DNA from: Alphaproteobacteria bacterium
GTDB taxonomy: Bacteria > Pseudomonadota > Alphaproteobacteria > UBA9219 > RFNS01
DNA length: 64,000 nucleotides
Assembly (NCBI GenBank): GCA_016124955.1
Contig: WGMR01000004.1
Span: 57,491-121,490 of the forward strand
Reading direction: 5' to 3'
Both the position numbers and the translations under genes were made by a program. The notes beneath the pieces are model-generated. The model searched no databases, was not told the origin of the DNA, and was given only the letters and a program-made list of their open reading frames with translations. Below are positions 1,789-52,928 of this stretch, piece by piece. Every line of letters begins with the position of its first letter. Positions within the stretch are counted from its first letter, which is position 1.

Positions 1789-1962
1789 GTTTGAAATTCC
1801 CTTCCCTGAAATAATTTAAAAAAAAGAACAAAAACAATCCCTGTGAAATTCGCGGCAAGCCCCTGCCGGGTTACAACGCCCGGACATTTTTTATATTTAT
1901 ATGTTTATCAAGGGGTTAGATTGAGGCTGACAGCAAGGCCCGATAAGCCGGCCCCGGGCGGC

Positions 1963-4301: not shown

Positions 4302-4569
4302 GCGAAATTTCCTGTTTCGGGCAAGTGGGTACGGGGTCATGGCCGGCGCCGCCCCACGGATGGCAACGGCAGATGCGTTTCAGCGCAAGCGCGGCGCCGC
4401 GCGCGGGGCCGTGGCTATTGACGGCTTCAAGCGCATAGGCCGAACAGCTGGGCGCAAAACGGCAGCGCCCTGCGCCCAGCATCGCCAGAAACGGCGCGGC
4501 GCCGTAACGCCATGCGTATATTGTGGCGCGCAGGCACGCGGCGGCAAATTGTGTGGCGAATTTCGTCAT
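4291..4569 (-). CDS. yidD: membrane protein insertion efficiency factor YidD
   Basis: MTKFATQ...[13 protein letters not shown]...RCHPWGG signature. Sits between rnpA and yidC as in the conserved rpmH-rnpA-yidD-yidC operon. Confidence 0.8.
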
Positions 4570-4577
4570 GGCGGCCC

Positions 4578-4931
4578 TTATGCTACCCACATTCCCAGCT
4601 TCTGCAACGCCTGTATCAAATCGCGGCGCAACGCATCATAGTCTCGCTTCGGCGTAGCGGCGCGGGCGATCAGCACGTAATCGCCGGCCCGCACATGCGC
4701 GGGGATCACTTCGCGCGCCAGCGCGCGCAAGCGGCGGCGGGCACGGTTGCGCAAAACCGCGTTGCCGACCTTGCGGCTGGCGGTGAAGCCGAGCCGCACG
4801 CCCGCTTTTTCCTGCGCCGGGCAGGGCAGGCATTGCACGACAAGGCCGGGGGTCGCGCATTTGCGGTTCCCGGCCGCGACGGCAAGGAATTGCGCGCGTT
4901 TCCTGAGGGGTTGTAGGATGGCGGCAGCCAA
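4578..4931 (-). CDS. rnpA: ribonuclease P protein component
   Basis: ...[16 protein letters not shown]...[28 protein letters not shown]... Start assigned to a TTG 14 nt after the rpmH stop; the start codon is uncertain. Confidence 0.7.
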
Positions 4932-4945
4932 AACGGCTCCGGCCC

Positions 4946-5080
4946 TTAGGCGGTTAAACGTTTGCGGCCCTTGGCGCGGCGACGCTGCACAACCTTGCGG
5001 CCGCCCTTGGTCGCCTTGCGCGCGCGGAAGCCGTGGCGGCGCTTGCGGACCAGCTTGCTGGGTTGATAGGTGCGTTTCAC
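4946..5080 (-). CDS. rpmH: 50S ribosomal protein L34
   Basis: [44 protein letters not shown] (44 aa), GTG start with AAGGAG 7 nt upstream. Below the 60 aa cut-off of the ORF track. Confidence 0.85.
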
Positions 5081-5242
5081 TGTAAATACTCCTTAACAGT
5101 CTGAAGCGCGGTTTATAGGGTCGCCCCGGCACAGAGTCAACAAAAGGCGGGTTAACGGGCCCGGCGCAGGCCCGGAAACTTGACAAACCTGCCTAAAAAG
5201 GCAGTTTTAGCGCTCGTTTTTTGCAAAAACAGGTCATTAACA

Positions 5243-6466
5243 ATGCGGGATTTCCTGACGCTGGACGATATCGACTGCCACGGCAAAACCGTGCTGCTGC
5301 GCGCCGACCTGAATGTGCCGGTGGACGAAGCCGGCACGGTGACGGACGCGACACGGCTGGAACGGCTTGCGCCGACTATCCGCGATCTCGCCGCCTGCGG
5401 CGCGCGCATCGCCGTGCTTTCGCATTTCGGCCGGCCCAAAGGCAAGCCGGAGCCCGGCAGCTCGCTGCGCCAGATCACACCCGCTTTCGCCCGCGCGCTC
5501 GGGCGCGATGTCAGCTTCGCCGAAGATTGCATCGGCGCGGCGGCACAAGCGGCCATCGGGGCGCTCGGGCCGGGCGGCGTCGCGGTGCTCGAAAACACCC
5601 GCTTCCATGCCGGCGAAACCGCGAACGACCCGGCCTTCACGGCCCAGCTCGCGAAGAACGGCGATATTTTTGTGATGGACGCTTTTTCGACCGCGCACCG
5701 CGCGCACGCCTCCACCGTCGGGCTGGCCGAATTGCTGCCCGCAGCCGCCGGGCGGCTGATGCAGGCCGAACTCGATGCGCTTGATGCCGCGCTGGAACAT
5801 CCCGCAAGGCCGGTGCTGGCGCTGGTGGGCGGCGCCAAAATATCGACCAAGCTCGATCTGCTCGGCAACCTTGTCGCGCGCGTCGATGTCCTGGTGCTGG
5901 GCGGCGGCATGGCCAACACATTTCTGGCGGCGCGCGGCGTCGATGTCGGGCAATCGCTCTATGAACGGGATATGCTCGATACCGCGCGGGAAATCGATGC
6001 GGCGGCGGCGAAAAAGGGCTGCGCCATCTTGTTGCCGACCGATGCCGTCGTGGCCGCAGAATTGCGCGAAAACGCCGTCACCGCCGTGGCCGCCGTCGGC
6101 GCGCTGCCGGCGGGTCAGAAAATTTTCGACATCGGTCCGCAAACGGTGGGCGCAATTTGCGCGAAGCTGACGGAAATGAAAACCGTGGTCTGGAACGGCC
6201 CGCTTGGCGTGTTTGAAATTCCGCCGTTCGATGCGGGCACTTGCGCGGTCGCGAACATGGCGGGCGATCTGACGGGCGCGGGCAAAATAATCTCGGTCGC
6301 GGGCGGGGGCGATACCGTTGCGGCGCTGAATGTCGCGGGCCAGGCGGAAAAGTTCACTTATATATCGACCGCGGGCGGCGCATTCCTTGAATGGCTTGAG
6401 GGCAAGGACCTTCCCGCCGTCGCCGCGCTTCGCGAAGCAAAACGCGCTCAAACAGCGAAGCGGTAG
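5243..6466 (+). CDS. pgk: phosphoglycerate kinase
   Basis: 407 aa from [11 protein letters not shown]; contains [16 protein letters not shown] and GGGA signatures. The last ~7 codons are supplied by the first copy of the tandem repeat downstream. Confidence 0.9.
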
Positions 6467-6544
6467 CGCGTTAAAAAACAAACGCTCAAACAGCGAAGCG
6501 GTAGCGCATAGAAAAACCACGCTCAAACAGCGAAGCGGTAGCGC
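6445..6544. repeat. tandem repeat, 3 copies of a 25-nt core (CGCTCAAACAGCGAAGCGGTAGCGC) with 12-13 nt A-rich spacers, period 37-38
   Basis: Cores at 6445-6469, 6483-6507 and 6520-6544. The same core, inverted with one mismatch, recurs at 62328-62447. Confidence 0.75.
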
Positions 6545-6556
6545 TTTATATTAATA

Positions 6557-7372
6557 TTATATTTCCGGCCAGGCTTCCTGAAGCCGCGGGCCGATGCGCA
6601 CAGGCGCGATCGCGGTCGCAAGCCCCGTATTGTCGCTTGTGACCACAAGCGTGCCGCATACCGTGCCTTCACCTTCGGCGGGCGCGAGCCTTTCGCCCGG
6701 TATCTTGCGGGTGAAGCGCCAGATCGCGGTTTCCTTCTTCATGCCGATCACGCTGTCATAATCGCCGCACATGCCGGCATCGCCCTGGCAGGCGGTGCCG
6801 CCGGGCAAAATTTGCGCGTCCGCCGTCGGCACATGCGTATGCGTGCCGACCACGGCCGAAATGCGCCCGTCCAGAAAATGCGCGAACGCCATTTTTTCCG
6901 AACTTGCCTCGCCGTGAAAATCGACAAAAATCGCGGCCACGCTCTGGCCCAGCCGGTGTTTTTGTAAAAATGCGTCGATCAGGGCAAAGGGGTCATCGAG
7001 CGGCTCCATGAACAAGCGCGCCATGATGTTGATCACCAGAAGTTTTTTTCCGCCCGCGCATTCTACAATGCCGTGCCCCTGCCCCGGCGTACCGGCGGGG
7101 AAATTCAGCGGACGCAAAAGACGCGGCATGCTGTCCGCGAGCCCAAGCAGCTCGCGCTGGTCCCACACATGGTTACCGGTCGTGATGCAATCGATCCCTG
7201 CGGCGAACAGTTCTTTGGCGATCGCGCCGGTAATGCCATAGCCTCCGGCCGCGTTTTCGCCGTTCACGATCACAGCGTCGGGCCGCAGCCTTTCCTTCAG
7301 CGCGGGCAAGTGCTGCAACGCGGCTTCGCGGCCGCTGCGACCGACCAGATCGCCAAGGAACAATATACGCAT
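6557..7372 (-). CDS. YmdB-like (TIGR00282-family) metallophosphoesterase
   Basis: MRILFLGDLVGRSGR...VIVNGENAAGG...GNHVWD...DFHGEASSEK...GTHTHVPTAD, the calcineurin-like phosphoesterase motif order. True start at 7372, not the ORF-track 8086. Confidence 0.75.
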   Translation of the reverse strand: MRILFLGDLVGRSGREAALQHLPALKERLRPDAVIVNGENAAGGYGITGAIAKELFAAGIDCITTGNHVWDQRELLGLADSMPRLLRPLNFPAGTPGQGHGIVECAGGKKLLVINIMARLFMEPLDDPFALIDAFLQKHRLGQSVAAIFVDFHGEASSEKMAFAHFLDGRISAVVGTHTHVPTADAQILPGGTACQGDAGMCGDYDSVIGMKKETAIWRFTRKIPGERLAPAEGEGTVCGTLVVTSDNTGLATAIAPVRIGPRLQEAWPEI

Positions 7373-7417
7373 CGCGGTAAAGTGGCGCAGGCGGGCTTTT
7401 TTGTCTAGGCTGGCGCC

Positions 7418-8284
7418 ATGATCGAGGAATTCGCCCCCGCCAAGCTGAACCTTTACCTCCACGTCACCGGGCGGGGGGCTGATGGCTATCATTTGCTCGA
7501 TAGCCTCGTCGCTTTCGCCGACGTGGGCGACACCGTTACCGTAGCGGCCGCCGAGAAATTCTCGCTTTCCGTTACCGGCGTCATGGCGGGCGCGCTGGCG
7601 GGCACCGATATCACGCGCAACACGGTCGCGAAGGTGGTGCATGGGCTGGCGGCAAAGCTGGGGCGGCCGCCCCATGTTTCGGTATCGCTTGAAAAGAACC
7701 TGCCGGTCGCTTCGGGCATCGGCGGCGGCTCGGCCGATGCGGCGGCGGCGCTGCGCGGGCTCGCCCGGCTTTGGAAACTGGCGGAAGATGACCCGCTTTT
7801 GTTTGAAACGGGCAGCACGGCTGGCAAGGATATTCCCGTTTGCATCGCTTCGGTGACACAATATTTCGGCGGCGGCGGCGAACAATTGGGCCCGGAAGTG
7901 GCGCTGCCGCCTTGTCACATCGTGCTGGCCAATCCGGGCGTGCAGGTGGCGACAGCCGATGTGTTCCGCGCCCGCACCGGCAGCTTTTCGCCCGCAGCCC
8001 GGCTTGAAAATACGCCCAGGGATGCCGCCGACCTCGCCGCCATGCTGGCCGCGCGCCGCAACGATCTGACCGAAGCGGCGCTGCATGTCGCGCCCGCGGT
8101 TGGCGATGTGCTGGCGGCGCTGACCGCCACGCGCAACTGCCTGCTTGCGCGCATGCTGGGCAGCGGTGCGACCTGTTTCGGCCTATATACGGACCGCATG
8201 GCGGCCGATGCGGCGGCAGCGCAGCTGCGGCGCAAACAGCCGCTGTGGTGGATCACGCCGGCAAATATGCCCGCACGCATATGA
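7418..8284 (+). CDS. ispE: 4-diphosphocytidyl-2-C-methyl-D-erythritol kinase
   Basis: APAKLNLYLHVTGR...GIGGGSADAAAALRGL... GHMP-kinase motifs. Confidence 0.85.
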   Translation: MIEEFAPAKLNLYLHVTGRGADGYHLLDSLVAFADVGDTVTVAAAEKFSLSVTGVMAGALAGTDITRNTVAKVVHGLAAKLGRPPHVSVSLEKNLPVASGIGGGSADAAAALRGLARLWKLAEDDPLLFETGSTAGKDIPVCIASVTQYFGGGGEQLGPEVALPPCHIVLANPGVQVATADVFRARTGSFSPAARLENTPRDAADLAAMLAARRNDLTEAALHVAPAVGDVLAALTATRNCLLARMLGSGATCFGLYTDRMAADAAAAQLRRKQPLWWITPANMPARI

Positions 8285-36172: not shown

Positions 36173-37216
36173 TCAGGCTTTCCAGTTGCGCACCAGATCC
36201 ACAAGCTGCGCGACATGGTCCGGCGGCGTTGCGGGAAGGATACCGTGACCAAGATTAAAGATAAACGGGCCCCCTGCAAGGGCTTCCATAATGGAGGCAA
36301 CCTCGCGTACCAGCTTGCCCCCGCCCTCGAGCAATATTTCGGGCCGTAAATTGCCCTGTACCGGCCTGTCTTGCTGCAATTTGCGCGCGGCGGCCAGCGA
36401 TACGTCGCTATCTATGCCGATGGCGTCCGCGCCGCTGGCCGCGGCATAGCGGCCATAAAGCCCGCGCGCCCCGCGCGGGAAGCCGATTACGGGTATTTCC
36501 GGGTAATGCCGCTTGATCTCGGCGGTTATCTTTGCCGCCGGTCCGGTCACAAAACGGGTAAAAAGCGCCTCGTCGTGCGCCAGTAATCCGGCCCAGCTGT
36601 CGAATATCTGTAAAACCCCGGCGCCGGCGCTGATTTGCGCTATAAGATATTGCGCGCTTGCTTTGCAAAGCTGGTCTGAAAGCGCTGTCAGAAGATCCGG
36701 CTTTTCCTGCGCCCATTGCAGCGCACGGGCAAAGCCGCCGTTCTTGCCGCTTTTTCCGTCAATCATGTAGCAGGCTACCGTCCAGGGTGCGCCGCAAAAC
36801 CCTATCAGCGATGTTTTGTTGCCAAGTGCGGCGCGGACGGTTTTTATAGCCGCGCAGGTCGGCGCCGTTCCGGCTTCATCGTAAACAAGGTTCCACGCAC
36901 CGCTATCCTCGGGCAACGGGTCCAGACGCGGCCCTTCGCCTTCGGCAAAATCCAGTCTGCGGCCAAGGGCATGGGGAATAAGCAATATATCGGAAAATAT
37001 GATCGCGGCATCCAATCCGAAGCGCTTTACCGGCTGCAAGGTAACTTCGCTTGCCAGTTGCGGGTTTCCGCAAAGTTTCATGAAGCTCCCGGCCTGTTCC
37101 CGGACCGCACGATATTCGGGCAAATAACGTCCCGCCTGCCGCATCAGCCAGATCGGCGGCGGAGATGTGGCTTTGCCATTAAAAGTTTGTTCGAGCGTAC
37201 GCATTGAATTATCCAT
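36173..37216 (-). CDS. hemE: uroporphyrinogen decarboxylase
   Basis: ...PPIWLMRQAGRYLPEYR... HemE N-terminal signature. Confidence 0.9.
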   Translation of the reverse strand: MDNSMRTLEQTFNGKATSPPPIWLMRQAGRYLPEYRAVREQAGSFMKLCGNPQLASEVTLQPVKRFGLDAAIIFSDILLIPHALGRRLDFAEGEGPRLDPLPEDSGAWNLVYDEAGTAPTCAAIKTVRAALGNKTSLIGFCGAPWTVACYMIDGKSGKNGGFARALQWAQEKPDLLTALSDQLCKASAQYLIAQISAGAGVLQIFDSWAGLLAHDEALFTRFVTGPAAKITAEIKRHYPEIPVIGFPRGARGLYGRYAAASGADAIGIDSDVSLAAARKLQQDRPVQGNLRPEILLEGGGKLVREVASIMEALAGGPFIFNLGHGILPATPPDHVAQLVDLVRNWKA

Positions 37217-37606
37217 AGACGCGTTCTTCTATAATAAGAATATATAATAGATAGGAGTTGTAGGTTGGTCCTGTTGAAAATGGGTATGGAATGGCTTTTT
37301 AAGGGTTATGCGCTAAGTTATACGCAGGCTTTTTTTATAAGGCTTCAATATCCCTGTGGATCGAAACTGTGTAGCCATGTGTGCAAGTCCGCATATTGGC
37401 GCTAACCGAGGTTTGTGATTTTTGGGGGTAAACAAGGCCCTTGTTTTATCCCGGTTATACACAAGCGTGTTTGACATAACGGCTATCCTGTTGGGTAAAA
37501 GCGTGACAGTTTGTGCATGACAGGGATGATTTTCATGGGCCTGTGAAAAACCCGTTCTTGTCACCGTAATCCACAGGCACAGCGCAGGAAGGACAGAATA
37601 CCGGCA
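37205..37606. other. oriC: candidate chromosomal replication origin (Cori-type, between hemE and DUF299 gene)
   Basis: Roughly 390 bp non-coding, visibly AT-richer than its surroundings. DnaA-box-like 9-mers: TTATCCATA (37209-37217), GATCCACAG on the bottom strand (37354-37362), TTATACACA (37455-37463), TAATCCACA (37567-37575), and weak TTATCCCGG (37445-37453). AT tracts at 37224-37256. The location matches the conserved hemE|RP001(DUF299) origin site of Caulobacter and Rickettsia. Confidence 0.55.
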
Positions 37607-38452
37607 ATGGAAAGCAAGGAATTCCATATCCATCTTGTTTCCGACGCGACGGGTGAAACCATCAACACCATTGCCCGCGCCTGCCTCGTGCAATTTGAAG
37701 GCATTGAAGCGAGCCAATATTTCTGGAGCCTGATCCGCACTCCGCGTCAGCTCGATATGGCGATCGATGGTATCCGCGCCCGTCCGGGGCTTGTCATGTA
37801 CACCTTCGTTGACGAAGAATTGCGCCTGAAACTTGAGGATTTCTGCAAAAAGGAAAGCATACGCAGCATTTCGGTGCTCGATCCCGTGATGGATGCGATG
37901 CGCGACCATTTCGGCGTCAAGGCCGCGCACAATCCGGGCAAGCAGCATGTGCTGGATACCGATTACTTCGACCGGATCGAAGCGATGGATTTCGCGCTCG
38001 CGCTCGATGACGGCAACGGGTCGCGCAATCTCGAAAAGGCCGATGTCATTATCCTCGGGGTTTCGCGCACCTCGAAAACCCCGACCTGCGTTTATCTGGC
38101 CAATCGCGGCATCAAGGCCGCCAATATTCCGGTCGTCCCCGGCGTGGCGCTGCCCGAAAACCTTACGGAACTGTGCAAGGGCAGGCTGGTCGTCGGTCTC
38201 ACCAAGGATCCGGAAAGCCTGGTGGAGATCCGCCGCCACAGGCTTAAGTGGCTCAACCAGCATCAGGAAACCGATTACGTCGATCCGGACAAGGTAAAAG
38301 AAGAGGTACAGGAGGCGCGCCGCCTGTTCGCGCGTTTGGGGCTGCCGGTGATCGATGTTTCGCGCCGCTCCATTGAAGAAACCGCGGCCGAGGTTATGAT
38401 GCTATTGCAGAAACGCCGCATTGCGGCGGATAGCGGACGGGAAGGGCAATAA
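37607..38452 (+). CDS. DUF299 kinase/pyrophosphorylase (pyruvate,phosphate dikinase / PEP synthase regulatory protein-like)
   Basis: MESKEFHIHLVSDATGET...GVSRTSKTPT... hallmark of the PDRP/PSRP family. Confidence 0.85.
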   Translation: MESKEFHIHLVSDATGETINTIARACLVQFEGIEASQYFWSLIRTPRQLDMAIDGIRARPGLVMYTFVDEELRLKLEDFCKKESIRSISVLDPVMDAMRDHFGVKAAHNPGKQHVLDTDYFDRIEAMDFALALDDGNGSRNLEKADVIILGVSRTSKTPTCVYLANRGIKAANIPVVPGVALPENLTELCKGRLVVGLTKDPESLVEIRRHRLKWLNQHQETDYVDPDKVKEEVQEARRLFARLGLPVIDVSRRSIEETAAEVMMLLQKRRIAADSGREGQ

Positions 38453-42762: not shown

Positions 42763-42913
42763 GGGAGACGCGTCCTTTCCGCATGGGCATTTGCTTGTAT
42801 GGGGCCAGATTATGCGGCTCGCCGCGGTTTGTCCATGCCGGGCCGCCGGTTTGTAACCGCGCCGCTTGTGGCGTAAAGTACCTGGCACACAACACGGGCC
42901 GGAGAGCGCAGCC

Positions 42914-43225
42914 ATGAAAATCACCATGAATATAGAATGCACACCCGAAGAGGCGCGTGCGTTTATGGGCCTTCCCGATGTGCAGCCGCTGCAAGAAGCG
43001 CTGATGAGCGCAATGCAGGAACGCATGCAAATCGGCCTGCAGGCCACCGACCCTTCGAAGATGCTGCAGGCTTTTGTGCCCGGCTCAGCCGACAGCCTGC
43101 AGGAAATGCAAAAACTGTTCTGGGGCGGCATGCAGCAAACGGTGCAGCAAACCATGCAACAGACCATGCAAAACGCCGCCAACATCGCCCGCCTGGCATC
43201 CGGCGGCGGACGCGGAAACGAATAA
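42914..43225 (+). CDS. hypothetical protein (103 aa, Gln/Met-rich C-terminus)
   Basis: ORF from MKITMNIECTPEEARAFMGLPDV...; no family recognised. Confidence 0.4.
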   Translation: MKITMNIECTPEEARAFMGLPDVQPLQEALMSAMQERMQIGLQATDPSKMLQAFVPGSADSLQEMQKLFWGGMQQTVQQTMQQTMQNAANIARLASGGGRGNE

Positions 43226-43232
43226 GGCCGGC

Positions 43233-43568
43233 ATGGAAGCCGAACCCTTTTACCGGGCGCATATTTTCTGCTGCACAAACAAGCGCGCGCCCGGGCACGA
43301 ACGCGGCTGCTGCGCCGACAAGGATAGCGAGCGTTTGCGCAACTATATGAAGCGGCGTGTGAAGGAAGCGGGGCTGGAAGCCGTGCGCGTCAACGGGACC
43401 GGGTGCCTTGACCGTTGCGAGCTTGGGCCCTGCATCGTCATATACCCGGAAGGCGTGTGGTATGCGCCAAAAAACGAAGCCGATGTCGATGAAATTATCG
43501 CTTCGCATTTGCAAGGCGGCGCGCGCGTTGCGCGGCTGTTACTGCCGCCGCGCGCGCAAACGGCCTAG
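43233..43568 (+). CDS. thioredoxin-like [2Fe-2S] ferredoxin
   Basis: HIFCCTNKR...GCCA...GCLDRCELGPCIVIYPEGVWY four-Cys pattern of the NuoE/Fd4-like family. Confidence 0.75.
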   Translation: MEAEPFYRAHIFCCTNKRAPGHERGCCADKDSERLRNYMKRRVKEAGLEAVRVNGTGCLDRCELGPCIVIYPEGVWYAPKNEADVDEIIASHLQGGARVARLLLPPRAQTA

Positions 43569-44107
43569 CGTTCCCCGCCGATACCCTTGTACTTCAGCAA
43601 AGTTTCGGCCTGCCGCAACAAATCCATGCGTGTCGGCAGCGCGCCCGCCAGCGCGCCTTCCGAAAAATGTTCGATCAAGGCATCGCCAAGCCGCGTGACT
43701 TCTTCGAGATCAAGCGGTCCGTCATTGCCGAAATATTCGGCGCGCAGCGTCATGCGTATGTGCGCGATCAAGTTGGCGATACGCCCGCCCGCGCCCGCGC
43801 CGGATGTTTCGGCGATACCGGCCTTGTTCGTGCCGCCGGCTGTTTGTAAATAAGTCATATCGAAGTGATCGCGCAACGCCGCTTCCGGCATTTCCAGCAG
43901 GGAGGCGAGCCGGTAGCGCACATCTTCGGGCAACTTGCGCGGCGTGCCGCGCTCGAAATACTGGTTCATGTATGAATGGCTTTTGCCGAGCTGCAGCGAA
44001 ACCTCGCGGTCCGTAAGGCCGCGTTCCTGCATGCGCGCGCGCAGCCGGTTGCGCACCGGGTCGCCCGCGCCTTCTTGTCTTCCGGTTTGTTTTTTCATCT
44101 CGGTCAT
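43565..44107 (-). CDS. XRE-family helix-turn-helix transcriptional regulator with C-terminal domain of unknown function
   Basis: N-terminal HTH (GLTDREVSLQLGKSHSYMNQYFERG). Start at 44107 or 44098. Divergent from a small ORF across an operator-like repeat region. Confidence 0.65.
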   Translation of the reverse strand: MTEMKKQTGRQEGAGDPVRNRLRARMQERGLTDREVSLQLGKSHSYMNQYFERGTPRKLPEDVRYRLASLLEMPEAALRDHFDMTYLQTAGGTNKAGIAETSGAGAGGRIANLIAHIRMTLRAEYFGNDGPLDLEEVTRLGDALIEHFSEGALAGALPTRMDLLRQAETLLKYKGIGGER

Positions 44108-44197
44108 AGGATAAATACTATATACATAGGAAGATAAGTACACAATATATAAAATATCCTATTGACATATAGGAAACGCCCTATACATTCTGTGGGC
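44108..44197. promoter_or_regulatory. AT-rich divergent promoter region with ATAGGA-motif array (operator-like)
   Basis: ATAGGA at ~44108, 44128 and 44173, plus the inverted pair TCCTAT-tgacat-ATAGGA (44157-44176). Strongly AT-rich in a GC-rich genome. Confidence 0.4.
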
Positions 44198-44425
44198 ATG
44201 ATGACCCCCGGCCCATACCCGCCTGCGTTTTCCGGCCAACTTGCGCCCGAACAGTTCCTTGCGGCGGTGGATTTGTTCCTGCGCCGTAGCGGCATGTCGG
44301 CAAGCATGCTGGGCAAATGCGCGGTCAACGATCCGGGTCTTGTGTTCCAGCTGCGCCGGGGGCGCGAACCGCGCCGCAAAACCATGCAACGCGTACTTGA
44401 TTACATGGCGTCCTATACCGGCTAG
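44198..44425 (+). CDS. small hypothetical protein (75 aa), possible DNA-binding
   Basis: MMTPGPYPP...GMSASMLGKCAVNDPGLVFQLRRGREPRRKTMQRVLDYM; a conserved-looking alphaproteobacterial small-protein pattern. Confidence 0.4.
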   Translation: MMTPGPYPPAFSGQLAPEQFLAAVDLFLRRSGMSASMLGKCAVNDPGLVFQLRRGREPRRKTMQRVLDYMASYTG

Positions 44426-44466: not shown

Positions 44467-45831
44467 ATGTCTGAAAATCCCGCGCCCGCCAACAATGCCG
44501 CCGAAACCATCTTCGCACTTGCCTCCGCGCCCGGCCGCGGCGGTATTGCCGTTCTGCGCATATCGGGCCCGCAAGCGGGCGCCGCCGCTACGGCGCTTTG
44601 CGCCGCAACCCTGCCGCCGCCGCGCACGGCGGCGTTGCGCACATTGCGCCATCCCGGCACGAAAGAAATTATGGATCGTGCGTTGCTGTTCTGGTTTCCG
44701 GCGCCCGGCAGCTTCACGGGCGAAGACGTCGTCGAATTGCATGTGCATGGCGGCCGCGCGGTGACCGAAGCGGTGGCGGAAGCGTTACGCGCGCAGCCCG
44801 GCTTGCGCCATGCCGGACCGGGCGAATTTACCCGCCGCGGTTTTGAAAACGGCAAGTTCGATCTGACGGCGGCCGAAGCGATTGCCGATCTTGCGGCTTC
44901 GGAAACCGAAGCGCAGCGCAAACAGGCGTTGCGGCAAATGGACGGCGCGCTCGCGCGCCTGTATGACGGCTGGGCCGCGCGCCTGACCCGCGCGCTCGCG
45001 CATCTTGAGGCCGATATCGATTTCGCGGACGAAGACCTTCCCCCCGATGCGTACAATGCGCCGTTGGCCGAATTGCGGGCGATGGCGGGCGATATCGCAG
45101 CGCATCTGGCAGACAGGCGCGGCGAAAGTTTGCGCGAAGGCTTCCATATCGCCATTCTCGGCGCGCCCAATGCCGGCAAATCATCCTTGCTCAATGCGCT
45201 GGCGCGGCGCGAAGCGGCGATCGTCGCGGAACAGGCGGGCACGACGCGCGATGTGATTGAAGTGCGGCTCGATCTCGGCGGCTATCCGGTCACGCTTGCC
45301 GATACCGCCGGTTTGCGCGAAAGCGCCGACGCGGTGGAAAGCGAAGGCGTAAGCCGCGCGCTGGCGCGCGCCCGCGCGGCCGATCTTACGCTGCTGGTGT
45401 TCGATGCCGCCTTGCTCGCATCGACGCCGCCCGATGCCGCGACCTTGGCGCTGGCCGGCCCCGCCAGCATGGCGGTTTTGAACAAATCCGATATCGAGGG
45501 CGCGGCGAAAGCATTGTCCGCCCCCGTCGCATCGGTCCATCCGCTTTCCGCGAAAACCGGTGCGGGCATGGAAAACTTTATCGCCGCGCTTACCCAAACC
45601 GTGGCCGCGCGTCTTGCCGATACCGGTGCACCGTCCCTTACCCGTTCCCGCCACCGCGAAGCTTTGGAGGAATGTTGCGGGGCATTGTTGCGCGCATCGA
45701 TGGCGGTTGCGCCGGAATTGCGCGCGGAAGATGCCCGCCTTGCGCTGCGCGCGCTCGGGCGCATCACCGGCCGGGTCGATGTTGAAGATTTGCTCGATGT
45801 CATATTTCGCGATTTTTGTATCGGGAAATAA
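44467..45831 (+). CDS. mnmE: tRNA modification GTPase MnmE
   Basis: N-terminal THF-binding domain, G-domain (GAPNAGKSSLLNAL, DTAG) and C-terminal CIGK. Confidence 0.95.
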   Translation: MSENPAPANNAAETIFALASAPGRGGIAVLRISGPQAGAAATALCAATLPPPRTAALRTLRHPGTKEIMDRALLFWFPAPGSFTGEDVVELHVHGGRAVTEAVAEALRAQPGLRHAGPGEFTRRGFENGKFDLTAAEAIADLAASETEAQRKQALRQMDGALARLYDGWAARLTRALAHLEADIDFADEDLPPDAYNAPLAELRAMAGDIAAHLADRRGESLREGFHIAILGAPNAGKSSLLNALARREAAIVAEQAGTTRDVIEVRLDLGGYPVTLADTAGLRESADAVESEGVSRALARARAADLTLLVFDAALLASTPPDAATLALAGPASMAVLNKSDIEGAAKALSAPVASVHPLSAKTGAGMENFIAALTQTVAARLADTGAPSLTRSRHREALEECCGALLRASMAVAPELRAEDARLALRALGRITGRVDVEDLLDVIFRDFCIGK

Positions 45832-45969
45832 AGAAAATCAGCGTATTAACCAACATTCGTGCGCCAAATTCTTGACAGAATGTGCGCCCATGGTCTTTAT
45901 GCGAATGATGATGCGCTTCGCTTGCGCCGGAATTTTTTATAAAGCCATTCGCTCAAAGGGGTTTCAATT

Positions 45970-46527
45970 ATGGCCGCAAACAGCATTGACAGTTTCTTTT
46001 CTGGCGCCGGCAAACTTATGTTTGGCAGGCAGAACTGGGCGAGGACGACACGCGGCATTATTGTGTCCGGCCTTGCCGTCGGCGCCGTGGCAATGCCGGT
46101 CGCCAAGGCTTATTTAACCGGTAAAATCATCGCAGGCCTTACAGCGCTTTCCATCGCGGCGCCCACAGCTGCGGCCCTGGCGCCCACAATTCTTCTGGGC
46201 GCGGCGCTTTGCGTAGGCGCTTACGCCGCATGGGGCGCGGTTTCCGGCGTCGCCAACGTGACGATGGCGGTGCTCGGCGATAACATGTTCGGCAGGGCGG
46301 CGAAGGCCGTCGTTGAACATCCGCGCACGACCGCCTTCCTTGTTGGCGCGGGCCTGACCGCATTCGGCCTTGCGGCCCTGCTTATGCCTGGCTTTGCGGC
46401 GCTTATACCGCCGGCCGTTACGGCCTTCGGGCTCAACGGCGCGATGACTACGGCCGTTGCGGGCGCGGGTATTATGGGATTGTCCGCGAACGCAATGCGC
46501 AATGCCGGCATGACCGGCCCGCACTGA
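45970..46527 (+). CDS. hypothetical Ala/Gly-rich integral membrane protein
   Basis: AAAGGGG RBS. A TTGACA-like -35 sits in the AT-rich 140 bp upstream region. Multiple TM segments; T-ending codons are more frequent than in the core genes. Confidence 0.5.
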   Translation: MAANSIDSFFSGAGKLMFGRQNWARTTRGIIVSGLAVGAVAMPVAKAYLTGKIIAGLTALSIAAPTAAALAPTILLGAALCVGAYAAWGAVSGVANVTMAVLGDNMFGRAAKAVVEHPRTTAFLVGAGLTAFGLAALLMPGFAALIPPAVTAFGLNGAMTTAVAGAGIMGLSANAMRNAGMTGPH

Positions 46528-46554
46528 TTTTCAATATAGACGGATTGAAGAGGC

Positions 46555-47277
46555 TCAGAGCCCCTTGGCGAGCAGCGAGATGGCCGCCGCCACGAGCAGT
46601 ATGTTGATGGCGGCGCGAAACCTGTCTTCCGATATCAGGCGCGGAACCTTGTAGCCGACCGCGAGCCCCAGCAAATGCGCGGGCAAACAAATGAGCAACA
46701 ACGTCAGAATTTCCCCATGATACATGCCGGCCGTGCCGCTGAGCGCGCAACGCAACGCATTGCCTGCGAACAAAATCAACAGAACGCTTGCCCGGAATGT
46801 TTCCTTGTTCAGCGAAAGGGTTTTCAAATAAGTCACGATAAAGGGCCCGCCCATGCCCGATATGCCCGAAACTACCCCGCCTGCCGCGCCCGCCGCCGCC
46901 TGCGCCGCCACGTTTTTCACGCCGCGCAATTGCGGAAACTTCAGCCGCGCGCCCGCCGCGACATAAAAAACCAAATAGCCGGCCAGCACGAAGTTAAGCA
47001 GGCTGTCATCGACCGTGTTGAGCAAAAACAAGCCGAGCGCGGAGGCGGCAGGGAAAACCACGGCGATCACGCCGATTCCCTTCCAATCGATATGACGCCA
47101 GATAAAAGGCAGGAGTACGCCTTTGAGCGCCTGAAACACAAGGAAAAGCGTCACGCTGTCCTTGATGCCGAACATGAGACTAAGCAACGGCACGGCGACA
47201 AGACCGCCGCCAAAACCGAACGTGGCCTCGACAAGCGAGGTGGCAAAAACGATAACGACACTCAGGAAAATTTCCAT
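46555..47277 (-). CDS. TauE/SafE-family sulfite/organosulfonate exporter
   Basis: Two-repeat 4+4 TM topology with the conserved Gly-rich GFGGG segment near the N-terminus (FGFGGGLVAVPLL), PF01925-like. Confidence 0.8.
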   Translation of the reverse strand: MEIFLSVVIVFATSLVEATFGFGGGLVAVPLLSLMFGIKDSVTLFLVFQALKGVLLPFIWRHIDWKGIGVIAVVFPAASALGLFLLNTVDDSLLNFVLAGYLVFYVAAGARLKFPQLRGVKNVAAQAAAGAAGGVVSGISGMGGPFIVTYLKTLSLNKETFRASVLLILFAGNALRCALSGTAGMYHGEILTLLLICLPAHLLGLAVGYKVPRLISEDRFRAAINILLVAAAISLLAKGL

Positions 47278-47331
47278 GCGCTTTTATGGCAGGAAAAGCG
47301 CCGGGTGGGAAATTTGTATGATAGTCCGGGT

Positions 47332-48048
47332 TTAGTGTGCCGGCGCGTAGTCGCCGCTGAAATCGACGTCGCTTTTCACGAGCCGGAGATGCGGAACACT
47401 TTTCTTCTGCGCCGCCCTGGTTTCCGCTTTTTGTTGTTCGACCAAGGCTTCGGCCTCGCTCACAAGATAATCCGCGACCATTGCCAGTTCCTGCGCGATG
47501 CTTACTTGGTCCTGCGGGTCGCTCAGCTCGATGTAATCGATATTAAATTCGCGCAACGTGTTGCAGCAATGCAGGCTGCTGACAAGCAGCGAAAGATCGT
47601 GGAACAGGGTGCCGATGCGCGTCGCCATCGCGCGCATGCGCGTCTTGGCCGGGCCGGTCGCGAGCCCGCAGCGCGTCAGCGCATGGATGAAATCGTTGCC
47701 GAAAATCATGGCATCCGGCGCGATGCCGTGCTGGCCGTCTTCGTTGTTGCGGCCGCGCGTGATCCACGCGCGCATCTGTTCACGCACGGCGGTGTTGCCA
47801 TCACCCGCGCCGCCAACCTCGCCGTCCGGGTCAAGTCTGGTGGGCAGCCATGCCAGTTCATCGAGCTGGTGACGGATCGCGCGCATGCCCATGCGCTCGG
47901 CCTGCATATAAGCGAAGGCGTATTCGTCGCGGCTGCAATCGGCCGAAAGGCTATGCGCGGCCAAAATGGCCTCGCGTTCGCCGGCGATGCGCTCCTTGGC
48001 GGCCATCAGAAGGCCGCGCACTTCATCGATATGTAATTCGGTGGCCAT
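47332..48048 (-). CDS. hypothetical protein (239 aa)
   Basis: ORF from MATELHIDEVRGLL...; several HxxxE/ExxH-type spacings. No confident family. Confidence 0.5.
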   Translation of the reverse strand: MATELHIDEVRGLLMAAKERIAGEREAILAAHSLSADCSRDEYAFAYMQAERMGMRAIRHQLDELAWLPTRLDPDGEVGGAGDGNTAVREQMRAWITRGRNNEDGQHGIAPDAMIFGNDFIHALTRCGLATGPAKTRMRAMATRIGTLFHDLSLLVSSLHCCNTLREFNIDYIELSDPQDQVSIAQELAMVADYLVSEAEALVEQQKAETRAAQKKSVPHLRLVKSDVDFSGDYAPAH

Positions 48049-48354
48049 GGGCCTGTTCCGATCCCTTGTTTCGCGGCACCGGGCCGCAAAGCCCGAAATA
48101 ACCGCACAAAGGTTAATTTTAACCAAAATATATCCATAAATTGTTAAGCCACAGCTTTAACAATCAATCATTAAACATATGATATATAACAATAATTTTT
48201 GTGTCATTGGCCTTATGGGTGCCTTTGCGGCTAAGACGCTGATATCCCTGCCTGTCTCAAAATTTTTTTTAATTGTGCAACAAAAGTTCGTTAAATATCG
48301 CCATCAGCGCACATTCTTTGCGCGCGCGGGCGTTTCGCCCTATACCTTCCGGCC

Positions 48355-50214
48355 ATGCAGGATTTTGATGTCATCATTGTTGGCGGTGGCCATGCGGGCT
48401 GTGAGGCCGCCGCCGCGGCCGCGCGGCTTGGCGCGCATACGCTGCTTGCTACGCATAAGCCTGAAACCATAGGCGAAATGTCGTGTAACCCGGCAATCGG
48501 CGGGCTCGGGAAGGGCCATTTGGTTCGGGAAATTGATGCGCTGGATGGCGTCATGGGCCGGGTGGCTGACCGCGCGGGGATCCAGTTTCGGCTTTTGAAC
48601 CGTAGCAAGGGCGCTGCCGTGCAAGGCCCGCGCGCGCAGGCGGACCGAAAACTTTATCGCCGCTATATGCAGGAAGTGCTCGGCAGTCAGCAAAACCTTT
48701 CCATTCGCGCCTGCGCCGTGGGCGATCTGATCGTTGGCGCCGATAACCGTATCGAAGGTATCGTGACCGAGCAGGGCGAAGTGCTGCGTGCCGCAGCCGT
48801 TGTGATTACGACGGGCACGTTCCTGCGTGGCCTTGTTCATATCGGTGCCGAAAAGATACAGGCTGGCCGTATAGGTGAAGCGCCATCCACGAAGCTTTCG
48901 GCCACGCTTGCACGGCTCCGGCTCGCGCTTGGCCGGCTCAAAACCGGTACACCCCCGAGGCTCGATGGCCGGACGATCGATTGGGCCGGGCTTGAAATGC
49001 AGCCGGGCGACGAACCGCCTATACCCTTCTCGACCCTAACATCCGCGATCACAAATCCCCAGGTTTGCTGCGGCCTGACCTACACATCTGCCGACACGCA
49101 CAACATGATCCGCGCCAACCTCGACCGCTCGCCGATTTATTCGGGACAGATCGAAGGGACGGGCCCGCGTTATTGCCCTTCGATCGAAGACAAGGTTGTG
49201 CGTTTTGCAGACAAGGAACGGCATCAGATTTTCCTCGAGCCCGAAGGGCTAGACGATCACACCGTATATCCAAACGGCATCTCAACATCGCTGCCGCGTG
49301 ATGTGCAGGATGCACTCGTGCGATCCATACAAGGTCTTGAAAATGTTAGTATTTTGCGCCACGGCTATGCGGTTGAATATGACTATGTCGATCCCCGGGA
49401 ACTGACCGCATCGCTCGAAGTCAAGCGCGCGCCCGGGCTTTTTCTGGCGGGACAAATCAACGGCACCACGGGCTATGAGGAAGCGGCGGCACAGGGGCTG
49501 ATTGCCGGGCTGAATGCTGCGCTCAAGGCAAGCGGCAGCTCGCCCTTCACCCTTTCCCGCACGCAAGCCTATATCGGCGTGATGATCGACGATCTGATTT
49601 CCCGTGGCACCGCCGAGCCTTACCGCATGTTCACAAGCCGCGCCGAATACAGGCTTAAGTTACGGGCAGACAATGCCGACCAGCGCCTTACCCCGGCGGG
49701 CCTGGAGCTCGGATGCGTGGGGCCAGAAAGACGGCAGAAATTCACGAGCAAGATGAGCGAGCTGGCCCGCGCGCGGACGATGGCTGAAGGATTTTCTGCC
49801 AGCCCAACCGCGCTTGTGAAACAGGGCGTGCACATCAACCAGGATGGGGTGCGGCGTAGCGCCATGGATTTGCTGGCCTATCCCGATGTTTCACGTGAAA
49901 CATTGACCAGAATTTGGCCACAACTATCTGATATTAAAACAGAAATTTTGAATCAAATCGAGACAGATGGCCGCTATGCCGGCTATATGGACAGACAGGA
50001 TGCCGATATTCGGGCCTTCGAGAAGGATGAAGCTTTGCGACTGCCGGCCGACCTGGATCTCGATGCCATCGGCGGGCTTTCGGCTGAGGTACGGCAAAAA
50101 CTGGCGCAGGTACGTCCGCAGACGCTTGGTGCGGCCGCGCGCATTCCGGGGGTTACGCCAGCGGCCACCCTGGCACTCTTGCGCTATGTTAAACGCAGTA
50201 AAAAAGCAGCATAA
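48355..50214 (+). CDS. mnmG: tRNA uridine 5-carboxymethylaminomethyl modification enzyme MnmG (GidA)
   Basis: [22 protein letters not shown] fold, full-length GidA. Confidence 0.95.
49887..49902. promoter_or_regulatory. parS: parS centromere site (TGTTTCACGTGAAACA)
   Basis: Perfect 16-bp palindrome identical to the ParB-binding consensus; lies inside the mnmG 3' region (encodes DVSRETL). Confidence 0.75.
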
Positions 50215-50235
50215 TCAACAATATAGGTGATATTT

Positions 50236-50970
50236 ATGACCGATGTTTCACGTGAAACATTCCTGACCCATTTTCCCGATGTTTCACGTGAAACATTGGA
50301 CAAGCTCGATCGCTATGCCGCGATGCTTACCGAATGGCAAAAGAAGATGAACTTGGTTGGTCCGGGCACGTTGTCCGAGATATGGACCCGCCATTTTCTG
50401 GATAGCGCGCAATTGATGCCATACCTGCCGCAATGGACCAGAAGCGTGACCGATATTGGCAGCGGTGCAGGTTTTCCCGGCATGGTGCTGGCAATTTTGG
50501 GTGCGCCACACGTAAACCTTATTGAAGCAACCCAGAAAAAGGCCCGTTTCCTTGAGGCGGTGGCAACAGAGCTTGGGCTTGAGGTGCATATTCATGCCGA
50601 GCGGTCCGAGCTTGTGCGCAACATACGGTCAAGCGTTGTGACGGCGCGTGCCGTGGCGCATATGGATGAGCTGATTCCCTATGCTTTCCCGTTTCTGGAT
50701 AAGGGCGGGATCATGATTTTCCTTAAGGGTCAGCATGTTGAAGAAGAATTGACAGCGGCAGCCAAAGATTGGCACTTTGAAGCCAGCAGGCATGCTAGCC
50801 TTAGCGATCCTTCCGGATTCGTATTGGTGTTGCAGGGCGTCGGCCATAATCAAAGCACCCGCAAGGATGTCCGTTGGCGCGGGCTGGGGCATGTGACCAA
50901 GGCGGGCGTTTCGACGCAAAAAGTTGTGACCCCGCCGCCGAAGCCGGAGCCCGACCCGGAGCCGAAATAG
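50236..50970 (+). CDS. rsmG: 16S rRNA (guanine527-N7)-methyltransferase RsmG (GidB)
   Basis: VSRETLDKLDRYAAMLTEWQKKMNLV...DIGSGAGFPG SAM-methyltransferase motif. Unusual Pro/Glu-rich C-terminal tail (VVTPPPKPEPDPEPK). Confidence 0.9.
   Translation: MTDVSRETFLTHFPDVSRETLDKLDRYAAMLTEWQKKMNLVGPGTLSEIWTRHFLDSAQLMPYLPQWTRSVTDIGSGAGFPGMVLAILGAPHVNLIEATQKKARFLEAVATELGLEVHIHAERSELVRNIRSSVVTARAVAHMDELIPYAFPFLDKGGIMIFLKGQHVEEELTAAAKDWHFEASRHASLSDPSGFVLVLQGVGHNQSTRKDVRWRGLGHVTKAGVSTQKVVTPPPKPEPDPEPK
50244..50259. promoter_or_regulatory. parS: parS centromere site (TGTTTCACGTGAAACA)
   Basis: Perfect consensus palindrome in the first codons of rsmG. Confidence 0.75.
50280..50295. promoter_or_regulatory. 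parS: parS centromere site (TGTTTCACGTGAAACA)
   Basis: Third perfect copy, 36 bp after the second, also within the rsmG 5' coding region. Confidence 0.75.
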
Positions 50971-51070
50971 GCGGGAGGACGGAAACAGGACCGCGCGATT
51001 GTAGTAATGTGTTATTATAATAATACAGTTTGCAGAAAGCCATAACCCGAAAGCAGCAAGGAAGCGCCGC

Positions 51071-51925
51071 ATGAGCTCAGATCAAACCAAGTCCGGCGGC
51101 GTCGCGCCCGGCATCACGCCGCCCGAACGGTGCCGCATCATCGCGATCGTTAATCAGAAAGGCGGGGTCGGCAAAACCACCACCACCGTCAATCTCGCGA
51201 CCGCGCTTGCCGCCGTCGGCATGCGGGTGCTGGTGGTCGATCTCGATCCGCAGGGCAACGCATCCACCGGTTTCGGCGTGCCGCGCAGCGCGCGCGAGCG
51301 TGGCGGCTATGAGATGATTTTCGACGGCATGAGCGTGGAAGACGTTGCGGCGGCGACGCCCATTCCGGGTTTGCAGATCGTGACATCCTCGGCCGACCTT
51401 GCGGGCGCCGAGATCCAGCTCGTGAACGCCGAGCGGCGCGAGAGCCGCTTGCGCGAAGCGCTCGAGCGCAGCGAAAAGGATTTCGATTACATCCTGATCG
51501 ATTGCCCGCCCTCGCTGAACCTTTTGACGCTCAATGCGCTCGTGGCGGCGCATAGCCTGATCGTGCCGCTGCAGGTGGAGTTCTATGCGCTGGAGGGCAT
51601 CAGCAACCTTGTGCAAACCGTGGAAGCGGTGCGCACGCGCTTTAACCCGGGGCTTGTGATCGAAGGCGTGGTGCTGACCATGTTCGACCGCCGCAACGCG
51701 CTTTCGGAAGCGGTTGCGAAAGACGTGCGCGATTATTTCGGTGACCGCGTTTTCACCACGGTGATCCCGCGCAATGTTCGCATTTCCGAAGCGCCTTCGC
51801 ACGGCAAGCCGGTTCTGCTTTACGATCTGAAATGCCCGGGTTCGCGCGCCTATATGCATCTCGCGAGCGAGGTTTTGAAGCGCGAAGGCAGGCCGCTGGG
51901 CGCGAGCGAAAGCGCCGTGGCGTAA
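51071..51925 (+). CDS. parA: chromosome partitioning ATPase ParA
   Basis: Deviant Walker A (NQKGGVGKTTT). Confidence 0.9.
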   Translation: MSSDQTKSGGVAPGITPPERCRIIAIVNQKGGVGKTTTTVNLATALAAVGMRVLVVDLDPQGNASTGFGVPRSARERGGYEMIFDGMSVEDVAAATPIPGLQIVTSSADLAGAEIQLVNAERRESRLREALERSEKDFDYILIDCPPSLNLLTLNALVAAHSLIVPLQVEFYALEGISNLVQTVEAVRTRFNPGLVIEGVVLTMFDRRNALSEAVAKDVRDYFGDRVFTTVIPRNVRISEAPSHGKPVLLYDLKCPGSRAYMHLASEVLKREGRPLGASESAVA

Positions 51926-51944
51926 TACTGAGGGAGAAAAAACC

Positions 51945-52928
51945 ATGACCAACAAAACCAACGCAGCGCTGAAAGATACGGGCAAGCCGGCCCCGCTGGG
52001 CCGCGGGCTCGCGGCGCTGTTCGGCGATGCCGACGCATCCTATCAGCAAGCGCCGGGCGCGCCTGCTACCGCTTCGGGCGCCGCCGCGCAAAGCCCCGCG
52101 CCGCAAACCGCGCCGCAAACCGCGCAGCAAAAAAGCCCGCAAACCATGCCGCTAAGCTGGCTGCAGCCCGGCCGCTTCCAGCCGCGCCGCCAGTTCGACG
52201 AAACCGCTTTGCGCGAACTTGCGGCTTCGGTGCGCGCGCGCGGCGTGCTGCAACCGCTGCTGGTGCGGCCGCTTGCCGAAAAAAATTCATACGAGATTGT
52301 GGCGGGCGAGCGCCGCTGGCGCGCCGCGCAGATCGCGGGCGTGCATGACGTGCCGGTGGTCGTGCGCGCGCTTTCGGACAAGGAAACGCTTGAGGTCGCG
52401 CTGGTCGAAAACATCCAGCGGCAGGACCTTAGCGCGGTCGAGGAAGCGGAAGGTTACCAGCGCCTGATGGATGAATTTTCCTATACGCAGGAAGACCTGG
52501 CCAAGACCGTGGGCAAGAGCCGCAGCCATGTGACCAACATGCTGCGCCTGCTTGGGTTGCCGCAAACGGTAAAAGATATGCTGGCCAGCGGCGCGCTCAG
52601 CCCCGGCCATGCGCGCGCGCTGATCGCGACCGACGACCCCGAAGCGCTGGCGAAGGCTATTGCGGAAAACAGCCTTTCGGTGCGCGATGCCGAAGCGCTT
52701 GCCAAGCGGCATGGCGACGGCAAGGCGCGGCAGGGCAAGAAAGCCGGCAAGGCGCAAAAGCGCGGCGAGATCCGCACCGCGGACGTGATCGCGCTCGAGC
52801 GCGATCTGGCCGCCACGCTCGGGCTCAAGGTTGCGCTCAAGGCCCGCACCGACGGCAGCGGGACGCTGACGGTGGCGTACAAGGATCTCGAGCAGCTCGA
52901 CGGGTTGATCGGGAAGTTGCGGGGGTAA
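51945..52928 (+). CDS. parB: chromosome partitioning protein ParB
   Basis: ParB box (GERRWRAAQIAG), HTH and C-terminal dimerisation region. Three parS sites lie about 2 kb upstream. Confidence 0.9.
   Translation: MTNKTNAALKDTGKPAPLGRGLAALFGDADASYQQAPGAPATASGAAAQSPAPQTAPQTAQQKSPQTMPLSWLQPGRFQPRRQFDETALRELAASVRARGVLQPLLVRPLAEKNSYEIVAGERRWRAAQIAGVHDVPVVVRALSDKETLEVALVENIQRQDLSAVEEAEGYQRLMDEFSYTQEDLAKTVGKSRSHVTNMLRLLGLPQTVKDMLASGALSPGHARALIATDDPEALAKAIAENSLSVRDAEALAKRHGDGKARQGKKAGKAQKRGEIRTADVIALERDLAATLGLKVALKARTDGSGTLTVAYKDLEQLDGLIGKLRG

Follow-up and report, generated by a model that had tools for sequence, protein, structure and literature searches.

In alphaproteobacteria, the genes mnmE, mnmG, rsmG, parA and parB, often preceded by rho, form a canonical cluster that carries parS sites and lies about 10 kb from a replication origin (oriC) bounded by hemE and COG1806. 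The arrangement mnmE-mnmG-rsmG-parAB is among the most stable in these bacteria and contains the centromere. In other bacteria, ParB spreading from parS silences some nearby genes (PMC4010829). Literature searches on parS, mnmG and alphaproteobacteria turned up no gene in the slot between mnmE and mnmG. The locus analysed here occupies part of a 64-kb stretch (64,000 nucleotides, hereafter the window) of contig WGMR01000004.1 from an Alphaproteobacteria bacterium. It shares with the canonical cluster its gene order, its orientation, the parS sites in and around mnmG and rsmG, and a hemE-oriC-COG1806-aroE-coaE-dnaQ module 9-11 kb away. It differs in carrying, at the mnmE-mnmG junction, an opposite-strand open reading frame (ORF239) that is found there clade-wide, together with two extra genes, ORF185 and a TauE/SafE transporter gene (tauE), in this genome.

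The gap from mnmE to mnmG is exactly 2523 bp (45832-48354), and hidden Markov model (HMM) matches confirm the genes at both of its borders. The initial annotation had read this 2.5-kb block as a single three-gene insertion that split two normally adjacent genes. The block and the premise of adjacency are both borne out: among 80 species-representative mnmG loci (58-73% identity) that served as the comparison set, mnmE lies within 400 bp upstream of mnmG in 50 of the 70 informative alphaproteobacterial loci, with 0.4-6.2 kb between the two genes in 13 and no co-oriented mnmE in the locus in the other 7. The single insertion is not. ORF239 homologs were found at about 45 metagenomic loci, on contigs of uncultured bacteria from peat, bog and wastewater samples, always without ORF185 and tauE, which are missing even from the closest relative (L130). 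Because ORF239 stands alone in these related loci and the other two genes accompany it in none, the block is not present or absent as one unit. The initial annotation had also reasoned that finding the same three genes across relatives would mark the arrangement as ancestral; the synteny comparison gives this result for ORF239, while ORF185 and tauE are not shared. The evidence largely establishes that the block is an old, clade-wide gene with its own promoter-like region, joined by two recent additions, beside the centromere.

The synteny of ORF239 was judged on contigs with exact family members and 36 further metagenomic loci, wherever the upstream DNA sufficed. In every such locus mnmG-rsmG-parA(-parB) is divergent from ORF239, usually at an intergenic distance of 130-430 bp (range 129 to about 430). 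In L130 (ORF239 45-50% and MnmG 77% identical to those of the window) the order is mnmE, a convergent ORF239 and a divergent mnmG, with nothing else between them, and ORF239 likewise lies exactly between mnmE and mnmG in L092 and L093. Besides these three loci, mnmE follows ORF239 in L101, L104, L106, L112, L123 and L124; the number of loci with mnmE downstream of and convergent with ORF239 is 10. The two stop codons are at most about 200 bp apart in L093, L106 and L130, the distance in L130 being about 5 bp. Elsewhere in the clade are sub-lineages from which mnmE has moved off, and there bacA or other genes follow ORF239. In L106, a COG1806-aroE-coaE-dnaQ-dienelactone hydrolase module sits between mnmG and ORF239 (1-8200), an arrangement resembling the outcome of an inversion that spans the origin and has one of its breakpoints between these two genes.

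A neighbour-joining tree of MnmG groups 16 carriers of ORF239 in a single clade that includes no more than four non-carriers (L012, L013, L023 and L025), and in these four, too, mnmE and mnmG are separated by other DNA. At the 80 comparison loci, tblastn and HMM searches found no homolog of ORF239, TauE or ORF185; distant ORF239 homologs in the 0.7-1.3-kb mnmE-mnmG gaps seen elsewhere were rejected as well, hmmsearch giving none at E <= 10 in gaps that hold unrelated ORFs or parS arrays. The simplest history, which we regard as provisional, is that the clade ancestor gained ORF239 once, on the opposite strand at the mnmE-mnmG junction, and that the gene would have been inherited there vertically ever since, with occasional replacement by other DNA. 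Two features of the data weigh against this history: the 80 mnmG loci are a sample out of more than 566 genome hits, and the tree is a neighbour-joining tree of a single gene. As a separate observation, L023 (6891-7835) and L025 (7220-7954) carry a different opposite-strand gene in the same slot, which has thus been reused.

A single horizontally acquired islet of 2.5 kb, bringing all three genes into this lineage at once, would agree with the adjacency of mnmE and mnmG in 50 of 70 sampled species, with the AT-rich spacers on both flanks, and with a 17-nt imperfect inverted repeat (15/17, including the exact 11-mer GCGCACATTCT) that has one arm in each spacer, at 45877-45893 and 48301-48317. 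This explanation is very unlikely: ORF239 sits in the same slot clade-wide without the other two genes, L130, L092 and L093 contradict a joint arrival, and the right spacer carries promoter-like motifs that are kept in relatives, whereas the flanking repeat is not. The left arm of that repeat directly follows a TTGACA, its right arm stands immediately upstream of the mnmG -35, no duplication flanks it, and it may be a product of chance. The three ORFs gave no integrase, transposase or recombinase in Pfam, NCBIfam or PHROGs, and the block ends show no target-site duplication. In all three genes the G+C content at third codon positions (GC3) is native (0.71-0.75 against 0.60-0.82 in the neighbours) and the in-frame codon log-likelihood is host-like. 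A mobile element or horizontal transfer was rejected on these grounds, namely the missing mobility genes, the missing end duplication and the native codon usage.

The two additions are later, lineage-specific cargo at the convergent 3' junction of mnmE and ORF239. In other loci this junction holds 0, 0.65, 1.4 or 3 kb of unrelated DNA; the site tolerates incoming DNA, and insertions there leave promoters undisturbed. ORF185 contains 44 alanine and 25 glycine residues and four to five hydrophobic segments, in agreement with the earlier description of an Ala/Gly-rich polytopic membrane protein. It matches only itself among 5.8 billion clusters and has no match in Pfam, NCBIfam or PHROGs, and the search for relatives proposed in the initial annotation returned none. 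It is probably a young orphan gene, because its in-frame codon usage looks native (GC3 0.71) and NCBI annotates it. Its codons are not T-biased, as had been stated: thymine at third positions is 0.19, inside the neighbours' range of 0.09-0.25. The promoter assigned to it fares in part: the spacer is AT-rich and contains an exact TTGACA, but a sigma-70 consensus scan called no promoter in 45832-45969, the -10 being weak. ORF185 may either have a promoter in the 138-bp spacer or be read through from mnmE.

The opposite-strand TauE/SafE exporter of the initial annotation is confirmed in its family membership by a full-length match to PF01925 (85 bits, cut-off 32.6; residues 8-235 on model positions 3-237 of 237). 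NCBI names it a TSUP family transporter, and all 19 homologs carry PF01925. Like other members of this family, the protein is polytopic and covers the model above its gathering score; it differs in context, in that outside this genome nothing ties it to ORF239 or mnmEG. Its nearest homologs (46% identical) are encoded beside dnaE or greA, not ORF239 or mnmG, and no sulfonate-metabolism genes adjoin tauE in the window. No terminator-like site was found in the 54-bp gap between ORF239 and tauE (47278-47331), and tauE may be co-transcribed downstream of ORF239. The same gap contains a perfect hairpin with an 8-bp stem, GCGCTTTT-N8-AAAAGCGC (47278-47301), which abuts the tauE start codon and could be a translation-control or processing site. 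The features of the locus are collected in Table 1.

Table 1. Positions of genes and sequence elements in and around the mnmE-mnmG block, in window coordinates (GC, guanine-plus-cytosine fraction; aa, amino acids; rc, reverse complement)
Feature	Position	Strand	Evidence or remark
mnmE (tRNA U34 cmnm5 synthesis GTPase), left border	44467-45831	+	NCBIfam NF003661 equivalog, 556 bits (cut-off 380); Pfam TrmE_N, MnmE_helical, MMR_HSR1
Spacer, 138 bp, AT-rich	45832-45969		GC 0.435; exact TTGACA at 45872-45877
ORF185	45970-46527	+	185 aa; Ala/Gly-rich hydrophobic orphan ORF
TauE/SafE (TSUP) transporter	46555-47277	-	240 aa; PF01925, 8e-24
ORF239	47332-48048	-	238 aa; conserved core of the block; no family match
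Spacer, 306 bp, AT-rich	48049-48354		GC 0.435; 0.40 for 48127-48354
ORF239 promoter-like element	48117-48147	-	-35 TTAACA (rc 48142-48147), 19-nt spacer, -10 TTAAAA (rc 48117-48122)
Palindrome ATTGTTAA-N9-TTAACAAT (equally ATTGTT-N13-AACAAT)	48140-48164		Exact
mnmG promoter-like element	48318-48346	+	TTGCGC 48318-48323, 17 nt, TATACC 48341-48346
mnmG, right border	48355-50214	+	TIGR00136, 828 bits (cut-off 525); one perfect parS at 49887-49902
rsmG, parA, parB	50227-52928	+	Confirmed by Pfam
Two perfect parS in the rsmG 5' end	50244-50259 and 50280-50295		Each encodes DVSRET
parA and parB	51071-52928	+	Pfam (ParB_N, HTH_ParB, ParB_C)

The conserved core of the block, ORF239, defines a family of its own. 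Its start is the ATG at 48048, backed by the family alignment, which shortens the protein from the 239 residues first given to 238; its place on the opposite strand and the absence of a family match stand as described. A word-indexed search of 5.8 billion clusters returned nine relatives and a profile search of 1.84 billion representatives returned 36, all of about 220-250 aa and none with another domain, and the named members are all annotated "hypothetical protein [Alphaproteobacteria bacterium]". No member matched Pfam, NCBIfam, PHROGs or PDB sequences in profile searches; the one candidate PDB match, 25 residues of a designed coiled coil, was dismissed as spurious. Across the clade the ORF239 proteins are 30-50% identical, against about 70% for the neighbouring MnmG. 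A plasmid or phage origin was ruled out, since tblastn gave no match on 72,556 plasmids and 50,697 phages.

An AlphaFold2 model built from 33 sequences predicts an all-alpha protein with high confidence (predicted local distance difference test, pLDDT, 91.2; predicted template modelling score, pTM, 0.82), in which four long helices are accompanied by two short strands and a conserved insert. A Foldseek search with an earlier, lower-confidence model found nothing under E = 0.58, and the fold resembles no known tRNA-modification enzyme. Thus the profile and structure searches that the initial annotation had proposed turned up no annotated family or fold relative of ORF239. Seven residues are invariant in the family alignment (Y43, Y47, E51, G117, N118, H122 and R126), and six of them map to two helix faces with i, i+4, i+8 spacing, Y43/Y47/E51 and N118/H122/R126. 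The HxxxE/ExxH spacings once suggested as metal-binding are not conserved, only E51 and H122 being invariant and these lying 71 residues apart, with H6, H32 and H60 variable; the RIGTLFH stretch is present. Behind an acidic core (isoelectric point about 5-6) come a usually basic tail of low complexity and a short P-x-L-R-[LV]-[IV] motif, and no helix-turn-helix (HTH), ribbon-helix-helix or other recognisable DNA-binding domain was found. As far as sequence and model go, the family is small, self-contained, clade-restricted and uncharacterised, a predicted cytoplasmic all-alpha protein with no known relatives or fold.

ORF239 also has a conserved upstream element dedicated to it. When the upstream regions of its homologs are aligned on their shared motif, they show a sigma-70-like promoter motif kept across the family, with TTAAC[G/A] as -35, 17-19 nt, and a TATAAT-like -10; TTAACGAT or TTAACAAT occurs in 24 of 33 ORF239 loci, and L130 is nearly identical to the window at this motif (TTAACGGTTTATCC...TTTTGGTTAATAT). 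The start of ORF239 transcription in the window is predicted near 48110. The -35 forms, in most relatives, the right-hand half of an inverted repeat, AT[CT]GTT-N10-AAC[AG]AT, found at the same place and perfect in nine loci. The ATYGTT/AACRAT hexamers are six-fold enriched (54 observed against 8.6 +/- 3.1 expected), and the repeat is absent (0 occurrences) from 1.19 Mb of 80 genome loci without ORF239. The half-site types follow phylogeny, and clade members that lost ORF239 also lack its inverted repeat but keep the mnmG promoter motif. Motif and repeat hold a fixed position relative to ORF239 and none relative to the mnmG motif.

These observations bear on the palindrome in the right spacer, which the initial annotation placed just upstream of mnmG and proposed to test as a regulator-binding site or an mnmG promoter element. 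The palindrome is an exact one, each arm having one base more than first stated, but it lies 191 bp from the mnmG ATG and nearer to ORF239 (92 bp from its ATG). Taken alone it is only marginally beyond chance, perfect inverted repeats of 8 bp or longer arising in 42 of 1000 shuffled spacers. We infer that it is part of the ORF239 promoter-like motif and a candidate operator there, and not an mnmG element; the arm nearer ORF239 could be the -35 and the far arm an operator half-site. The flanking spacers are as AT-rich as described (GC 0.435 in both, against 0.61 for the window), while the right one, given the ORF239 ATG, extends over the whole of 48049-48354; both would be promoter regions and not element ends. 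The mnmG motif itself, TTTGCTTT..TATAxx with 17-nt spacing (TTGCxx, TTGCTT in the clade), ends 6-8 nt before the ATG in at least 20 relatives and 8 nt before it in the window, with no Shine-Dalgarno sequence in either case. The mnmG mRNA is probably leaderless, with a predicted start at 48355, because a promoter-like motif abuts the ATG and a Shine-Dalgarno sequence is missing. Structured RNA was considered and set aside: at gathering thresholds Rfam had no hit anywhere in the window, and 45780-48400 stayed without one at E <= 1 as well.

The AT-rich right spacer, with GC down to 0.33 in 200-bp windows, adjoins gidA/mnmG as oriC does in E. coli and contains TTAA...TTAAC half-sites, so that it might be taken for a replication origin, or its palindrome for a CtrA box or a core mnmG promoter element. 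This is the least probable of the explanations considered, and we regard it as almost certainly wrong. No DnaA box at <= 1 mismatch occurs in 48049-48354, and the mnmG motif, which is no more than 40 bp from the ATG of that gene, is retained where the palindrome is missing. A CtrA box was rejected on spacing, N9 and not N7, with a TTAA-N7-TTAAC count of 0 in the window; the ORF239 -35, TTAACAAT, is one mismatch from TTAACCAT, which we take to be a CtrA half-site, and this serves as a lead only. The origin signals all fall at 37.1-37.6 kb instead. There, a 390-bp AT-rich gap (37217-37606, GC 0.44) separates hemE (36173-37216, - strand) from the COG1806/Kinase-PPPase gene (37607-38452, + strand), with aroE, coaE and dnaQ beyond the latter; cumulative GC skew, computed per base, reaches its minimum at 37149, and DnaA-like boxes are at 37209, 37455 and 37567. 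The boundary genes match those described for Caulobacter and Rickettsia origins (PMC1914354). The chromosomal oriC is therefore most likely at 37217-37606, as predicted from these signals.

ORF239 resides in the parS zone near this predicted origin. The window holds three perfect parS sites, TGTTTCACGTGAAACA, against 0.12 expected; parS is the 16-bp palindrome TGTTNCACGTGNAACA, the sites cluster by parAB and the origin, and the cognate ParB is encoded alongside. They would constitute the centromere, and their distance is 1.5-1.9 kb downstream from the right edge of the block (48354) and 1.8-2.2 kb from ORF239. The pair in rsmG encodes DVSRET twice, the N-terminal motif being duplicated (MTDVSRETFLTHFPDVSRET). 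Many relatives have a parS-like palindrome, for example GGTTTCACATGAAACC, between the ORF239 promoter motif and the ATG, with 10 loci at <= 1 mismatch in the 12 fixed core positions and about 17 at <= 3; an apparent hairpin that relatives show upstream of ORF239 is in fact made of these parS-like DNA palindromes. Beyond the ORF239 clade, parS lies within 8 kb at 67 of the 80 alphaproteobacterial mnmG loci, and it is found in the mnmE-mnmG region of genomes without ORF239 as well. In Xanthobacter-like genomes, the gap between mnmE and mnmG is filled by 7, 11 and 17-18 perfect parS sites (L054, 6924-7827; L063, 6224-7826; L076, 5324-7819), which in six-frame translation read as repeated MFHVKH and NVSRET peptides. 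From these arrays and the 67 of 80 mnmG loci, it follows that the junction is part of the centromere.

Upstream of mnmE, the position taken by rho in many alphaproteobacteria is occupied here by a DUF6489 gene (42866-43225), an Xre-type HTH gene (43565-44143, - strand) and an 87-aa ORF (region 42866-44425). The DUF6489 gene is also kept in L093, L101, L106, L112 and L123, and L106 has rho just past it.

We favour, with moderate confidence, an overall reading that joins the composite history of the locus to a centromere-linked ORF239. Under this reading, ORF239 would be a soluble bundle of helices whose polar surface is conserved, encoded within the ParB-loading zone. Its expression would be set by an operator-binding factor at the inverted repeat, the simplest candidate being ORF239 itself, and ParB at nearby or leader parS sites would modulate its transcription. 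The protein would then act in origin or centromere biology, through segregation or cell-cycle coupling, and not in transport or tRNA chemistry. A centromere-, ParB- or cell-cycle-linked role is proposed because of the position in the ParB zone, the inverted repeat confined to ORF239 and the leader parS-like sites in relatives. It is the most likely specific function for ORF239 and is put forward with low confidence. The full version, in which ORF239 is a new family and fold and a dedicated origin/centromere component, autoregulated through ATYGTT/AACRAT, gated by ParB at leader parS and coupling segregation to the cell cycle, is unlikely.

Several observations weigh against the functional part of this reading. 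The role is drawn from position and cis-elements only, and the stability of the cluster means that any inserted gene would be carried along passively. The acidic core without a recognisable DNA-binding domain sits poorly with an operator-binding protein, and the invariant polar residues equally fit an enzyme or a ligand-binding site. In the window itself, the inverted repeat is a single copy with N13 spacing against N10 in the family, and nothing like parS is found in the ORF239 leader; in L130 the distal half-site is missing. Linkage to mnmG is also looser in places, with 1-5 kb between ORF239 and mnmG in L001, L106, L112 and L113, and the L106 inversion leaves mnmG about 4 kb away while ORF239 stays beside mnmE.

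Much of this fits a passive passenger, that is, a protein of unrelated function (for example small-molecule binding or an enzyme) fixed by chance in a slot that is rarely rearranged, the cis-elements being the gene's own promoter and the parS-like sites being there only since the region belongs to the centromere. The parS sites found in the region even without ORF239, the unrelated opposite-strand genes in the slot of L023 and L025, and the lack of a DNA-binding signature agree with such a passenger, and we consider it a distinct possibility. It accounts less readily for two things. Except in L106, ORF239 has been kept near mnmG-rsmG-parAB through rearrangements that removed mnmE, and the inverted repeat is specific to ORF239 promoters and enriched there, which suggests dedicated control.

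A part for ORF239 in the tRNA U34 modification carried out by MnmE and MnmG, as an enzyme or an accessory factor, for instance in substrate supply or editing, is quite unlikely. Such a part would account for its retention between the two genes and for the intergenic control region that it has in common with mnmG. Conserved divergent gene pairs often share function, mnmE and mnmG enclose ORF239 in 10 loci, mnmG is divergent from it in nearly all, and its seven invariant, mostly polar residues are active-site-like. However, ORF239 is never co-transcribed with mnmE or mnmG, and fewer than half of the ORF239 loci that have downstream sequence show mnmE nearby. The gene is restricted to one clade while MnmEG works elsewhere without it, its fold is unlike any known tRNA-modification enzyme, and its motif and inverted repeat keep no fixed distance from the mnmG motif over intergenic regions of 129 to about 430 bp.

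As a gene that, on the history above, came into this slot a single time and persisted through a deep clade, ORF239 is an unusually well-defined "hypothetical". Should it act together with ParABS or the origin, bacterial chromosome segregation would gain a component specific to this lineage; should it be a passenger, the mnmE-mnmG junction is still a recurrent landing site for cargo, parS arrays and other genes. The case further illustrates that a "three-gene insertion" inferred from one genome can hide a layered history, and the analysis places oriC, parS sites and likely promoters in a metagenome-assembled genome that had automatic annotation only.

Set against known systems, the locus is a variant of a well-known conserved cluster, and nothing so far shows a new kind of system. 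The genes silenced in the ParB zone of V. cholerae (VC0067 and VC0069; PMC4010829) resemble ORF239 in lying near parS, and many ORF239 relatives have a parS-like site in the leader; the window ORF239 differs in having none, and ParB binding here is predicted from the sites. With divergent autoregulator-target pairs of the LysR type, ORF239 shares its conserved divergence from mnmG and a specific inverted repeat overlapping its own -35 motif, but it has an acidic core with neither an HTH nor another known DNA-binding domain, and its candidate operator is fixed relative to ORF239 and not to mnmG. In E. coli, oriC lies between mioC and gidA, and mioC, which encodes a flavodoxin-fold protein, is transcribed towards oriC. 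ORF239 resembles mioC as a small, non-essential-looking gene immediately upstream of gidA/mnmG and near the origin, yet it encodes an unrelated protein predicted to be all-alpha, is transcribed away from mnmG, and lies about 10 kb from the predicted oriC.

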